From: Oscillospiraceae bacterium
GTDB taxonomy: Bacteria > Bacillota > Clostridia > Oscillospirales > Oscillospiraceae
Reading direction: 5' to 3'
NCBI GenBank assembly: GCA_017622995.1
Contig: JAGAQA010000024.1
Span: 6,272-70,271 of the forward strand
DNA: 64,000 bases
This document shows, piece after piece, positions 8,271 to 26,273 of this stretch. The translations under genes and the position numbers were made by a program. How positions within the stretch are numbered: the stretch's first letter is position 1; each line of letters opens with the position of its first letter. The notes beneath the pieces were generated by a model. It was given only the letters and a program-made list of their open reading frames with translations, searched no databases and was not told the origin of the DNA.

Positions 8271-10067
8271 ATGAAGAAAAAAATTCGCCTGGACGGGAAA
8301 GCAATCCTTTGGAGCCTTCCCTGGACGGCGGTTACCCTGGTTTCAGCCCTGAATCTGCGGGCGCTGAACTGGGGCGCCGACGGCGGCGGGCTCCTGGCGC
8401 ACCTGCGCTATGGACTGGTATACAATCTTTCCAGCAATGTGTTTGATTTTCTGGCGCTGTGCCTGACCTGCTTTTTGCTGGCGCTTCTGGAGACGGAAAC
8501 CCTGAGAAAGGAAAAACGGCGCTTCTTTCTGCCGGGGGTGCTGCTGGCGGTGCTGTTTGCGGAGAATACCCTGATTTTTCAGTCTCCGACGAAGGTGCTG
8601 GAAAATCTCATTGCCCTGCCCGGCTGCGGAATTCCCGAAAACCTTTTGCACTGGGTAGCCCAGCTGGGCAGCTGGTATGCCCTGAGCCTTTGCTTTTTCC
8701 GCTGGATGTCCCGCCCGATGGAAAAGGGGGAAGGGAAGGAAGCAACTGCCGGACAGTGCCTTCTTTGGGCGGCGGTGATTCTGGTTTTGTGGCTGCCGGT
8801 ATGGATGCTCCGGTTCCCCGGCTCTATCTATTCCGATACGGATGTGCAGATCCTTCAGTTTATGGGGGCGCTTCCCTGGGAGGCTTCCAATCCGTTGCTT
8901 CTGACCCTTGTGTATGGCCCCCTGTTCTGCCTGGGAAGACTCCTGGGCGGGGACAATGCAGGCATCTTTCTGTGTGTGGCGGTACAGGTTGCCCTCACAC
9001 TGTTTGCCTTTTCCTTTGCCTGCCGGGAGGTGGCCCGGGAGCGGGACAGCCGGAAAGCCGGTTGGCTGCTGTGCCTGTTCTTTGGCCTGATGCCCAATTT
9101 CCCGTCCTTTGCGGTGTCGGTACTGAAGGACTTTATCCATGCGCCGCTGTATCTGCTGTTCGCGCTTTTCCTGCGCAGATGTGCCCGGGGCGGGGAGCGG
9201 AAGGACCTGTACCGTCTGCTGATCCTGGCGGTGCTCTGCGCTGCCACCCGGAAGGGCGCCGTGTATCTGGTGGGCATCTGCCTGCTGGCTCTCGCCTGGC
9301 TGAGACTGGACGGCCGAAAGGTTCTGGTTCTGGCGGTCTGCGGCATTCTTGCGGGGCACTTCTGCCTGAATGAGTTCCTTTACCCGGCTCTGGGGGTGGA
9401 AAAACCCATGGAGCGGGAAAACTACAGCTTCTTTTACCCCATTACGGGATACTACTGCCAGAAATATGACGCGGAGCTCACGCCGGAAGAAAAGGAGATC
9501 ATTGGTTCCGTGCTGGACTATGAGACGGTGCGCACAGGCTTTTCTCCCGATGGGGTGGACCGGATCAAGGAAACCTACCACGCGGAAAACGCTGATCAGG
9601 TGCGCCGGTATCTGAAGCTCCACGGGTCCTTCTTCCTGCGCCATCCGGTGACCTGCCTGGAGGCGCTGGTGTATTCCAGAAACTATTATTTTACCCCCTG
9701 GACCACCCAGGGGGAGCGGATCACGGTGTCCATGTATCCCTTCCAGAAGCTGACAACCAAGGCAGAGAGCAATTTCCGCTACCTGCTGCCGGAGGATACC
9801 CGTCAGCATGCGGAAAACTTCCTTTGGGAAGTGATGAAGGCCCCCGTTCTGCGGGAGCTGACCGGCACCGGAAGCTATACCTGGCTGAGCCTGCTGCTTT
9901 TCGGCGCGGCGCTGTGGCAACAGGACAAAACGAAACAGATCTATCTTCTCAGTGTGGCGGTTCTGACGCTGGGCTTGCTGCTGACCCACCTCAACGGCGC
10001 CCTGCGCTATGCCAGCCCTCTGATTTACACCGCCCCGGTGCTGCTGATGCTCTACCGAACAGAATAA
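8271..10067 (+). CDS. Multi-pass membrane protein, DUF6020/GT-C glycosyltransferase-like
   Basis: Many TM helices; FPGSIYSDT..QILQ, KDF, TRKGA and LRYASPLI motifs; TTTACA-17-TATAAT promoter at 8209-8237. Confidence 0.65.
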   Translation: MKKKIRLDGKAILWSLPWTAVTLVSALNLRALNWGADGGGLLAHLRYGLVYNLSSNVFDFLALCLTCFLLALLETETLRKEKRRFFLPGVLLAVLFAENTLIFQSPTKVLENLIALPGCGIPENLLHWVAQLGSWYALSLCFFRWMSRPMEKGEGKEATAGQCLLWAAVILVLWLPVWMLRFPGSIYSDTDVQILQFMGALPWEASNPLLLTLVYGPLFCLGRLLGGDNAGIFLCVAVQVALTLFAFSFACREVARERDSRKAGWLLCLFFGLMPNFPSFAVSVLKDFIHAPLYLLFALFLRRCARGGERKDLYRLLILAVLCAATRKGAVYLVGICLLALAWLRLDGRKVLVLAVCGILAGHFCLNEFLYPALGVEKPMERENYSFFYPITGYYCQKYDAELTPEEKEIIGSVLDYETVRTGFSPDGVDRIKETYHAENADQVRRYLKLHGSFFLRHPVTCLEALVYSRNYYFTPWTTQGERITVSMYPFQKLTTKAESNFRYLLPEDTRQHAENFLWEVMKAPVLRELTGTGSYTWLSLLLFGAALWQQDKTKQIYLLSVAVLTLGLLLTHLNGALRYASPLIYTAPVLLMLYRTE

Positions 10068-10110
10068 CAAATACCGCCCCTTTCGGGGCGGTCCAATAAA
10101 ACAGTTTAAC
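10061..10110. repeat. attL of the integrative element
   Basis: aataacaaataccgcc-CCCTTT-cggggcggtccaataaaacagtttaa; core CCCTTT (10078-10083) is repeated at 26254-26259, and the inner arm is inverted relative to attR. Confidence 0.85.
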
Positions 10111-10140
10111 AATTGTTTTCGGGAAACGGCATGATTTCGG

Positions 10141-11787
10141 TCATGCCGTTTTTCCGTTTTGTAAATCATAGAGTAATGTTGCAGGAAGAATCCCGATGTA
10201 GTTGTAGCTGATCTCCACATCCTGCACCCGGTGTCCACTGGACTTGTCCGGGGAGTGAACATATACAGCATTGACCATATCGTTCAGAATGGTGGGTGTC
10301 AGCTTCTCTAAGTGTAGATACTTCTTCGCCTGACGGATAAATTTGTCCACATTATCCGCCTGATCTTCCTGATTCTGTATTTCTTCTTCCAGCATTTCAA
10401 TCTTGATTCGCAAGTCTGCCTGTTCCTGCTCATAATCCTCAGACAACATCTGAAAACGAGCTTCGGACAGCTTTCCGTTGACCATGTCCTCATAAATACG
10501 CTTGAATAATCTGTCCAGTTCTGCCAGACGGTTTTCGGATTTCTGCAAGGTTCGTTTCTTGGCAGAAAGCTCCCTCTTTGCTTCGGCACTTCGCTTTGCA
10601 CCCAATGCTCTGCGGAACGCTTCTTCGTAGCTTGCCACACAGGAGATCACCATTCTCATATGTTGAAGTGTTCCTTCTTCCAAAACAACTGCACGGATAA
10701 AGTGAGTGTCACAAACATCCTTTCCCTTTTTACGGGAAGTAGAACATACAAAGTGATCCTGTCTGGATTCAAAGCTATTGCTGGTGCAGTAATAGAGCTT
10801 TTCGCCACAGTCTGCACAGCGGACAATACCGGAGAACATATTGCTCTTTCCGGTTCTTGCAGGGCGGCGTTTATTCTTCCGAAGTTCCTGTACACGGTAG
10901 AAGGTTTCTTCGTCCACAATCGCATCATGGGTATTCTCGAAAATCTTCCATTCGGACTGGGGATTTTCGATTTTCTTTTTGCTTTTGTAAGACTGCCGTC
11001 GAGTTCGGAAGTTGACCATGTGGCCCAGATATTCCTGTTTTTCTAGTATTCCTGAGATCGTGCGTGGAGCCCAATCGTAAGGGTCATCCGGTGTCTTGGC
11101 AGGAGCATTTCTTCCCATCTTTGCCCAGTGGACGGTAGGACAATCTACCTCGGCTGCTTTCAGCTTGTGGGCAATCTGAGAAGGACCGTACCCTTCCATG
11201 CACCATGCAAAGATCTGCCGGACAATGGCTGCGGCTTCATCATCGATAATCCAATGTTTTTTCGGATTGTCAGGGTCTTTCATGTAGCCATAGGGCGGAT
11301 TGGTAGTCAAATACTCACCGGATTCGCCTTTCTGCTTCATGGATGCCTTGACCTTCTTGCTGCTGTCCTTCACATAGAACTCGTTGATAATGTTCAGGAA
11401 CGGTGTAAAGTCATTATCCATTTGATTGGCGCTGTCTACGCCGCTGTTGATGGCAATGAACCGGACATTGTGCTTCGGGAAAAGGATCTCTGTGTAGAAT
11501 CCCACTTCCAGATAGTTTCTTCCGATTCGACTCATGTCCTTGGCAAGCAGAACATCGATTTGATCTGCCTCCACCATGGCAATCATGCGCTGCCATTCCG
11601 GACGGTTGAAGTTGGCACCGGAAAAACCGTCGTCCACGAAAAACTGAATGTTTCGGAATCCCTGTTCTTTTGCGTATTTCTTGAGAATCGCCTTTTGATT
11701 GACAATGCTGTTGCTCTCTCCTGCCTGCTCGTCATCACGACTCAAGCGGCAATAGATTGCGGTAATTTTGCCAGACTGCCTATTCAT
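10141..11787 (-). CDS. Large serine recombinase (TnpX-like: resolvase, recombinase, Zn-ribbon, DUF4368)
   Basis: [11 protein letters not shown] catalytic motif, [18 protein letters not shown] zinc ribbon, C-terminal VEISYNYIG; GGAGG RBS before ATG 11787. Confidence 0.93.
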
Positions 11788-11879
11788 ATCTTGTTCCTCC
11801 TTAATCGGCGGGCAGTCTGCCAATACAGGATTGCTTACGTTTATTATAGCATCCATTTGTGAATATTTCACCCCTTTTC

Positions 11880-12086
11880 TTAATTCTCTTCCGGATTATC
11901 GCTTGCCATCTGGTCAAGTAGTTTTCTGGACAGACTGCGATTTCCGTCATAGCGTCCGGTGAATCGATAGGTGGTTCTGCCGGACTTGATTTCTACTGTG
12001 ATTTGGGGAAGCTGCGCTGCACAGTAGTTGGGAACAACGATCCCTCGTTCGGGGTCGATTCTGTAATTACGGTTGTTATCGTTCAT
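11880..12086 (-). CDS. Transposon-encoded TnpW-family protein
   Basis: [21 protein letters not shown] motif; position immediately upstream of a TnpX-like gene. Confidence 0.7.
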
Positions 12087-12122
12087 AAAAATTATCCTTT
12101 CATTTTTAGTGATGGGGAAGGA

Positions 12123-25634: not shown

Positions 25635-25755
25635 CACGCTATCCCCTAACAATTAGTATACTTGCGTTTATCGTTAAAATTATACGACATAAATGATTAA
25701 ATATCAACGATTTGTCGAAGTATAATTTACGAAGAATACAAGCAAAGGGGTGAGT

Positions 25756-26064
25756 GTGGTGAAGGATATTCTTGCTACCATAACAGAATACCGGGCAGAA
25801 AGAGGATGGACGGAGTATCAGCTTGCAGAACACTCTGGCTTGCCCCAGTCTACAATCTCCTCATGGTATCGTAAGAACATGGTGCCAACAATTCCATCCT
25901 TGGAGAAGATTTGTTCTGCGTTTGGGATTACACTGTCCCAGTTATTTGCCGAAGGCGATGCACCTGTTTCGCTGACTGAATCTCAACGAAAACTGTTAGA
26001 TCGTTGGTCGAGGTTGAGCGAGGAGCAGCAGTCTGTGGTTTTTGCTTTGATCGATAAAATGTAA
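25756..26064 (+). CDS. XRE-family helix-turn-helix regulator
   Basis: RGWTEYQLAEHSGLPQSTISSWYRKNMVPTIPSLEKICSAFGITLSQLF; divergent from the SLOG gene. Confidence 0.88.
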   Translation: MVKDILATITEYRAERGWTEYQLAEHSGLPQSTISSWYRKNMVPTIPSLEKICSAFGITLSQLFAEGDAPVSLTESQRKLLDRWSRLSEEQQSVVFALIDKM

Positions 26065-26065
26065 A

Positions 26066-26113
26066 AAATCCGCCAGTACCGGCACCGTAAGGTGTGCCAG
26101 CACTGGCGGATTT
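26066..26113 (+). terminator. Hairpin after the XRE gene
   Basis: aaatccgccagt...actggcggattt. Confidence 0.6.
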
Positions 26114-26230
26114 CAATCACAATTTGATTTGGATAAAAGAAAAACAAGCGATACCTCGTTCATAATGAACCAGATATCGCTCATTTTTGCTCTTGCACCC
26201 TGCTTGGCAGCTACCCTATGTCGGTAGTTT

Positions 26231-26273
26231 TTATACTGTCTTATTGGAAGCTACCCTTTGGGCGGTATTGTTA
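26231..26273. repeat. attR of the integrative element
   Basis: ttatactgtcttattggaagcta-CCCTTT-gggcggtattgtta; the inner arm is inverted to the attL arm and the outer arm is complementary to the host sequence left of attL. Confidence 0.85.

Follow-up and report, generated by a model that had tools for sequence, protein, structure and literature searches.

The window analysed here, i.e., a 64,000-nucleotide (nt) stretch of contig JAGAQA010000024.1 to which all coordinates refer, contains a 16.2-kb element located between a host gene for a DUF6020 membrane protein (598 amino acids (aa) according to the gene callers, with the stop codon TAA at 10065-10067) and the genes of a host two-component system. 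All genes between the two junctions are found on the minus strand, and the GC content of the element is 48.7%, compared to about 58% in both flanks. Because the element encodes its own recombinase and a MobA/MobL relaxase, without genes for a conjugation pore, it is, as judged from its gene content, an integrative mobilizable element (IME), which agrees with an initial annotation of this DNA as an IME with a large serine recombinase of the TnpX type. Counted as positions 10084-26256 plus one copy of a TT dinucleotide, the element comprises 16,175 bp and was very probably inserted by recombinase-catalyzed exchange between its own attachment site (attP) and a host site (attB) in the loop of a terminator that separates the two flanking genes. 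The host, an uncultured bacterium of the gut, belongs to the Oscillospirales, and the closest named relatives of the kinase and of the recombinase are Candidatus Faecousia.

The left junction of the element (attL) reads TAA-caaataccgcccctttcggggcggtccaataaaacagttt and the right junction (attR) atactgtcttattggaagctaccctttgggcggtattg-TTA, both as initially described. Presence of the element is polymorphic with precise boundaries; the site is occupied in contigs L023-L026 and L147, and empty in L134, L139-L143 and L145. The empty sites are found on conspecific contigs next to near-identical kinase variants of the same 90% cluster, while contigs that encode the identical kinase protein all harbor the element. 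One conspecific contig is labelled as pig gut metagenome. Contigs L139-L143 and L145 have the kinase and DUF6020 genes in convergent orientation, their stop codons 29 nt apart, and the sequence from the kinase stop through these 29 nt to the DUF6020 stop is AAATAACAATACCGCCCCAAAAGGGGCGGTATTTGTTATT. In the L139 allele it defines the hairpin AAATAACAATACCGCCCC-AAAA-GGGGCGGTATTTGTTATT (also given as CAATACCGCCCC-AAAA-GGGGCGGTATTTG), while L134 carries a second empty-site allele, ACAAATACCGCCCAAGTTCGGGCGGTATTTGT, i.e., ACAAATACCGCCC-AAGTTC-GGGCGGTATTTGT.

In the window, the two host flanks are complementary to each other, and when joined they fold into a 17-bp stem that takes in both stop codons, with a stability of -22.6 to -23 kcal/mol. 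The host half at attL, CAAATACCGCCCCT, supplies the 5' arm on the plus strand, and the 3' arm with a T-rich tail on the minus strand. With its GC-rich stem, short loop, downstream T-tract, upstream A-tract and position between gene ends, attB is a predicted bidirectional intrinsic terminator between convergent genes, and the initial proposal that the element resides in the loop of such a terminator is borne out by the joined flanks and by the conspecific empty sites. When attB is rebuilt from the crossover rule described below, the observed AAAA loop is obtained and the sequence differs from that of L139 by a single C, in a run that varies between strains and that has three Cs also in other alleles. 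The attB predicted initially is thus carried by element-free relatives, except that the prediction was 27 nt long (CCC-AAA-GGGG in kinase sense) and the observed site is 29 nt long (CCCC-AAAA-GGGG); of the shortfall of 2 nt, one A is accounted for when the crossover is put at a 2-bp TT/AA rather than at a 6-bp CCCTTT core, and one C reflects strain polymorphism. A search for the exact attB core in JGI metagenome contigs, made with a pattern that lacked 2 nt of the actual site and in data from which the species seems to be absent, gave no matches. Among 41 species-representative relatives the nearest kinase gene is 81% identical and is followed by a different terminator, so that these relatives show that there is a terminator at that position, but they do not allow confirmation of this particular attB.

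The recombinase has a longest open reading frame (ORF) of 576 aa. The start at 11787 chosen by the gene callers gives a protein of 548 aa, and an exact database look-up returned matches with the 548-aa start only, none with a 576- or 571-aa start. The catalytic domain (PF00239, E 7e-26) is followed by matches above the cut-off to PF07508, PF13408 and PF14287 (DUF4368), and the region of the catalytic-serine motif was located in the protein sequence. Among solved structures in the PDB, the catalytic domain of TnpX is the closest (2MHC, E 2e-45). In a plasmid collection the best homologue is 49% identical, with no annotation beyond "recombinase family protein" or "DUF4368 domain-containing protein". 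Closer relatives, 74-93% identical to the recombinase of the window, are encoded at about 60 loci in many Clostridia families, with hosts that include Oscillospiraceae, Lachnospiraceae, Erysipelotrichaceae and others. At each of these loci the serine recombinase gene lies at one end of the element, and the left-end sequence of the element is retained, i.e., all share the end ...ATACTGTTTTATTGG and another 9 nt, after which the sequences diverge into host DNA.

The far end was found in 11 other genomes using the inverted repeat CCAATAARACAGTAT, which together with the window gives 12 elements. These range in length from 9 to 43 kb, which indicates that the cargo is variable. The inverted arms ATACTGTYTTATTGG, found at 10093-10107 and 26233-26247 in the window, are conserved in all 12. 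At a distance of 9 nt from each inverted repeat, a dinucleotide is found that is identical at attL and attR in each of the 12 elements (the chance being 1/16 per element), and its sequence is AA in five, CA in two, GA in two, and TT, TC and TG in one element each. Near-identical att arms are seen together with differing dinucleotides (e.g., the arm ACCGCTCCC with CA, GA or TG), always with attL equal to attR. From this spacing, the crossover is deduced to be a 2-bp TT/AA sequence shared by attL and attR within dyad-symmetric att sites, and the CCCTTT sequence that had been taken as a 6-bp core is the 2-bp crossover extended by chance identity. The corresponding attP is composed of a 15-bp repeat, 9 nt, the dinucleotide, 9 nt and a 15-bp repeat, in total about 50 bp, a size that large serine recombinase sites reportedly have. 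The inverted arms of attP had been identified correctly in the initial annotation; the spacer at the predicted circle junction would be 20 nt, as follows from the 9+2+9 arrangement, rather than 21. A direct repeat (about 16 of 21 positions identical) is also present at the right end of the element: its first copy (26207-26229, AGCTACCCTATGTCGGTAGTT) is located just inside the far-end inverted repeat and its second copy (26248-26270, AGCTACCCTTTGGGCGGTATT) spans attR. It could be the relic of an earlier att site or a part of the region to which the recombinase binds.

The 15-bp inverted repeats and the duplicated TT are also what would be expected of a DDE-type transposon that ends in inverted repeats and duplicates 2 bp of its target. 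This explanation is hardly conceivable for the present element, because the ORFs searched in it include no DDE transposase, the repeats are separated from the element ends by exactly 9 bp, as in the attP half-sites of serine recombinases, and a serine recombinase gene is invariably found at one end.

The architecture of the target is not specific to the window. In all 12 elements the host flanks, although separated by 9-43 kb, are complementary to each other, and when joined they yield a hairpin with an A-tract, a GC-rich stem, a loop of 3-6 nt and a T-tract, where the crossover is located in the loop. The mean stability of these rebuilt hairpins is -20.0 kcal/mol, compared to -9.2 kcal/mol for flank pairs mismatched between elements. 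A larger sample is provided by 60 independent junctions from the 74-93% identical recombinases, all with distinct host flanks. Here, at least five T in 6 nt are found 15-21 nt past the repeat at 55 of 60 junctions and at 9.7% of control positions. Read outward from the crossover, the host half-site in these 60 cases is N-GG-SSSS, after which comes a T-run at positions 9-15; G is found in 45 and 39 of the 60 at positions 2 and 3, respectively, and T in 57 at position 12. Recombinase subclades at 47-49% identity, which have other end sequences, also adjoin a GC-rich arm and a T-run. Terminator targeting by this recombinase family is thereby supported at the level of sequence comparison, and the initial suggestion that close homologues would be found in terminator loops holds for both the 60 junctions and the 12 rebuilt sites.

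The genome to which the window belongs (2.5 Mb) contains at least 10 serine-recombinase matches, two of which are further DUF4368-type recombinases, located at C33:601-2268 (-) and C51:23483-25081 (-). The former, a 46% identical paralogue, adjoins the 3' arm and T-run of a terminator (ACTGTCTTACGAACACCCCGC-TA-AACGGCTGGGCTTTTTT), while the latter, 41% identical, is instead found next to a tRNA gene.

The association with terminators would be seen also if the recombinase had a loose specificity and the insertions that damaged genes had been lost, i.e., if it reflected survivorship. Consistent with such a scenario, the DUF4368 clade has been classed among multi-targeting enzymes of relaxed specificity (Durrant et al. 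2022, PMC10083194), and the recombinase of the window is found, with an identical sequence, also inside a reading frame (see below). Selection alone, however, would permit any intergenic position, whereas the crossover is in the loop in all 12 cases. Furthermore, the GG at positions 2-3 and the T-run (+15 to +21) are found in a fixed register, which argues against pure survivorship, and even the site within the reading frame matches the half-site motif. An explanation by survivorship is therefore improbable.

The insertion inside a reading frame is found at L148:4074-4440 (Logan SRR30940078), where the identical 548-aa recombinase and an element end interrupt hsdS (Methylase_S, type I restriction specificity) next to a HEPN_AbiU2 gene. 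The same enzyme is thus found at two different target sites, and its relatives likewise have distinct flanks, and since this site lies within a frame, insertion is not always neutral; it may inactivate or re-assort a defence gene. The crossover is again AA, followed by GGGGAGTGTGCTTTTG, and the site matches the half-site motif (GGGG...CTTTT) without being a terminator, and no hairpin is evident on the visible side. Because the site fits the motif although it is not a terminator, the enzyme appears to read a pattern in duplex DNA, a pattern that terminators offer on both sides because they are palindromes. The hsdS site thus speaks against an enzyme that responds to the function of a terminator or to an extruded hairpin. 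The latter alternative, where DNA structure in the form of an extruded hairpin or cruciform would be recognized rather than a duplex sequence, would fit the constant architecture of targets whose stem sequences vary, but it is very unlikely given that known enzymes of this type bind to their att sites as dimers, on duplex DNA (Rutherford et al. 2013, PMC3783163), that a positional sequence motif exists, and that the hsdS site as well as a site with a weak hairpin (G044) are used.

The terminator occupied in the window is also a hot spot for smaller insertions. In many conspecific strains (L121-L133, L135 and L136) the loop of this terminator is occupied by an insert of 2.2 kb (e.g., L122:4057-6233), made up of two cassettes in tandem, each about 1.06 kb long and with a gene for a membrane-anchored XRE-type helix-turn-helix (HTH) protein. 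The subterminal repeats of these mini-cassettes (ACTGTCTTA / TAAGRCAGT) are related to those of the 16-kb element, the crossovers are AA, and an attP-like junction is found where the two cassettes meet; no recombinase is encoded by either of them. Some of the strains differ by a 39-bp segment that contains a terminator and the subterminal repeat. The end modules of the cassettes recur on seven contigs of the window's genome as copies of 100-230 nt with 72-90% identity (Table 1); the copy on C33 is located near the recombinase on that contig. These observations suggest a family of small, non-autonomous cassettes that would be served in trans by a resident recombinase. Within one species, the same terminator is thus found in three states, i.e., empty, with mini-cassettes, and with the 16-kb element, which makes it useful for the study of insertion hot spots.

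Insertion splits the terminator, and the fate of transcription at the two junctions has to be considered separately. At attL the host half and the terminal arm of the element form a hybrid hairpin with a stability of -16 to -17 kcal/mol (-16.2 kcal/mol in the family comparison). This hairpin, noted initially as accgcccc-tttc-ggggcggt, is real (-17 kcal/mol), and it scores as a terminator on the minus strand, where it uses the host T-tract; it would serve only the outgoing recombinase transcript. On the DUF6020 (plus) strand there is no T-tail and the hairpin is not scored as a terminator, and at attR no usable hairpin is left. The initial annotation had proposed that the terminal arm CGGGGCGGT evolved as a mimic of a terminator half-stem, such that attL re-forms a working terminator and insertion becomes transcriptionally neutral. 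The stability and minus-strand score of the hairpin in the window agree with this proposal, and across the family the attL hairpins are slightly more stable (mean -6.3 kcal/mol) than those obtained with a shuffled host arm (-5.0 kcal/mol, p 0.002) or a shuffled element arm (-5.3 kcal/mol, p 0.02). The family-wide effect is weak, however, and none of the 58 cases is as extreme as that of the window; values of -9 kcal/mol or lower are seen in only 33% of them, and of -6 kcal/mol or lower in 45%. The extreme value in the window is explained by the host stem GGGGCGG, which happens to complement the element arm CCGCCCC. All four half-sites are G-rich beside the crossover, as expected if one recombinase domain binds both attP and attB, and a partial complementarity follows from this property; the shared G-rich inner motif would account for the data more simply than selection for mimicry. 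Together with the missing T-tail on the plus strand, the loss of the hairpin at attR and the terminators carried by the element itself (see below), these data make mimicry unlikely, and neutrality by means of attL is not supported in the form proposed.

Terminator-like hairpins that face inward are found just inside both ends of the element (Table 1). The one at the recombinase end has a homologue, including the T-run, in each of five other elements checked, and the first of the two at the far end has a homologue about 100 nt inside the far end in the same number, such that inward-facing terminators are conserved at both ends in six of six elements, the window included. Transcriptional insulation is therefore more plausibly attributed to these predicted element-borne terminators than to attL. 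The hairpin at 10121-10154 would stop the DUF6020 transcript and those at 26182-26146 and 26113-26066 would stop the transcript of the kinase operon, i.e., the element would replace the terminator that it destroys by stopping incoming host transcripts inside each end, while the hybrid attL hairpin and the host T-tract would end the outgoing recombinase transcript. An early idea, that the element is always co-oriented between a host gene and its T-tract and is expressed by read-through, was rejected because the targets are symmetric, with an A-tract on the far side in all 12 elements, and because of the strong inward-facing terminators at the entry.

Between the recombinase and relaxase genes lies a conserved 68-aa ORF without a family match in profile searches, and the DUF3847 gene adjoins that of the relaxase. 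The ORFs searched between the att sites matched no families besides those given here and in Table 1, neither coupling-protein nor VirB4-type ATPase families being among the matches, and judged from the gene content, transfer would occur by means of the MobA/MobL relaxase through a helper conjugation system. The small HTH_17 protein could be a regulator or a directionality factor. The largest cargo gene encodes a 2,656-aa protein with a signal peptide at the N-terminus, a Cys-rich N-terminal region, Big_2, MBG, YDG, GLUG and InlB-B-repeat domains, and a C-terminal hydrophobic anchor instead of an LPXTG motif; this surface protein may alter the cell-surface properties of a gut commensal. Three small cargo ORFs, for which Pfam and NCBIfam searches gave nothing above the cut-off, are preceded by a promoter-like site (TTGATA-17-TATAAT at 25707-25679, 11 of 12 matches).

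Table 1. Features of the element and its flanks (positions in the window unless a contig is given).
Feature	Positions	Strand	Basis or remark
Host DUF6020 membrane protein gene, left flank	8187..10067	+	Pfam PF19484, E 8e-31; convergent on kinase gene in empty-site contigs
Host half of split terminator at attL, CAAATACCGCCCCT	10068..10081	.	Same as empty-site sequence in L139-L145
attL hybrid hairpin, ACCGCCCC-GAAA-GGGGCGGT, host tail ATTTGTTATT	10073..10092	-	Terminator scan; fold -17 kcal/mol
Crossover dinucleotide TT (AA in recombinase sense), attL copy	10082..10083	.	9+2+9 spacing rule, 12/12 elements
Element left end	10084..10107	.	P' arm CGGGGCGGT (10084-10092) and terminal inverted repeat CCAATAAAACAGTTT (10093-10107)
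Inward-facing terminator-like hairpin, overlaps recombinase stop codon	10121..10154	+	15-pair stem with T-tail
TnpX/TndX-type large serine recombinase	10141..11871	-	Pfam Resolvase, Recombinase, Zn_ribbon_recom, DUF4368
Conserved 68-aa ORF	11880..12086	-	Gene called in L147 and L148
MobA/MobL relaxase	12123..13655	-	PF03389, E 5e-84
DUF3847 protein	13564..13908	-	PF12958, E 2e-25
HTH_17 small excisionase-like DNA-binding protein	14644..14883	-	PF12728, E 1.5e-7; TIGR01764 excisionase match weak, below cut-off
314-aa protein, C-terminus weakly like sigma-70 region 4	14914..15858	-	NCBIfam matches all sub-threshold
Cargo: 2,656-aa predicted secreted surface protein	16130..24100	-	Pfam; N- and C-terminal sequences
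Three small cargo ORFs (84, 180 and 166 aa)	24136..25652	-	Genes called in L023 and L024
Two tandem inward-facing terminator-like hairpins, each followed by a T-run	26066..26182	-	26182-26146 and 26113-26066; -21.6 and -38.8 kcal/mol
Element right end	26233..26256	.	Terminal inverted repeat ATACTGTCTTATTGG (26233-26247) and P arm AAGCTACCC (26248-26256)
Crossover dinucleotide TT, attR copy	26257..26258	.	9+2+9 spacing rule
Host half of split terminator at attR, TGGGCGGTATTG	26259..26270	.	Equals empty sites except for one base in C/G run
Host two-component system, right flank	26271..28069	-	Pfam; histidine kinase 26271-27326, response regulator 27323-28069
Cassette end-module copies on other contigs of the genome	C22:4618-4850, C58:32012-32160, C33:4534-4666, C39:24330-24922, C50:74720-74881, C20:49829-50146, C8:12673-13473		

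From the above discussion, the following sequence of events is proposed. A TnpX/TndX-type recombinase would have recombined attP, i.e., the ATACTGTYTTATTGG repeats with the 9+2+9 spacer, with the host attB, where the exchange would occur at the TT/AA in the middle of the 4-nt loop of the terminator shared by the DUF6020 and histidine kinase genes. The enzyme would read a degenerate motif with two-fold symmetry rather than one gene-specific site, and the half-site N-GG-SSSS with its T-run would amount to the generic terminator architecture. A palindromic stem would offer two equivalent half-sites to a recombinase dimer on duplex DNA, such that an extruded hairpin would not be needed. Variants of the crossover dinucleotide (AA, CA, GA, TC, TG and TT) would select among terminators by means of the matching dinucleotide in the loop.

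A number of observations weigh against this explanation or limit its scope. The attP junction pattern, with a spacer of 20 or 21 nt allowed, gave no matches in JGI metagenome contigs, and the circular excision intermediate that would carry attP is a prediction; the terminator functions are, likewise, all predicted from sequence. The discrepancy of 1 nt (three or four Cs) between the reconstructed and the observed attB remains. A clear T-run is missing at 5 of the 60 junctions, and the rebuilt hairpin at G044 is weak (-9.7 kcal/mol). Many of the loci originate from metagenome bins and their hosts may be related, even though the 60 flanks are distinct. In addition, the data do not fully distinguish between recognition by the enzyme and the survival of harmless insertions.

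In more general terms, it is likely that an entire clade of DUF4368 recombinases evolved the use of the bidirectional terminator architecture (an A-tract, a GC stem of about 7 bp, a short loop and a T-tract) as a ubiquitous and host-independent safe harbour, where the loop dinucleotide serves as an address and replacement terminators insulate the host genes. A clade that has been labelled by relaxed specificity and multi-targeting would then gain a readable rule, i.e., a palindromic terminator combined with a loop dinucleotide. If true, this rule would explain how these elements spread over many gut Clostridia while rarely breaking genes, and the landing sites would become predictable in any genome. 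Because every genome has many such terminators, they could also provide a host-independent landing pad for integration of DNA in non-model bacteria.

Among known systems, the element resembles the IMEs Tn4451/Tn4453 (TnpX; Clostridium perfringens and C. difficile), which also have the recombinase at one end, a DUF4368 tail, a 2-bp crossover, multiple target sites and a mobilization gene without a transfer apparatus. The TnpX elements have a GA crossover, targets that resemble the circle joint, the TnpZ (Mob/Pre) relaxase and catP, while the element in the window differs by its MobA/MobL relaxase, its giant surface-protein cargo, the TT/AA crossover and the terminator-loop targets. The conjugative transposon Tn5397 harbors a recombinase of the same clade, TndX, which performs integration and excision of Tn5397 unaided. 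Tn5397 is self-conjugative and prefers a specific site in C. difficile; in contrast, the present element is mobilizable only. Harmless landing places at terminators are used also by class C group II introns, which insert after terminator stem-loops, and by Tn7, which inserts at the glmS terminator. The former involves retrohoming on a DNA stem-loop and the latter binding of TnsD to glmS, so that the resemblance to the present element is one of strategy rather than family, with entirely different chemistry and recognition.

The closest comparison is with the multi-targeting clade of DUF4368 large serine recombinases, which includes TndX-like enzymes as well as Cp36, Enc9 and Pc01 (Durrant et al. 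2022, PMC10083194). For one of these enzymes, 21 attB sites were found with a TT core and with T- and A-enriched 5' and 3' ends, which was interpreted in terms of relaxed specificity (PMC10083194). The words terminator and hairpin are absent from that study and from a bacterial follow-up from 2026 (PMC13137831). Terminator targeting by these enzymes is not described in the full texts searched, a literature that does not include the original TnpX/TndX papers and in which the clade is only called "multi-targeting". The element shares with this clade the domain architecture and the multi-site behavior, and the T- and A-rich ends reported there fit the A-tract/T-tract pattern seen here. The difference is that the motif is identified here as the architecture of a bidirectional intrinsic terminator, found in a fixed register relative to the crossover.

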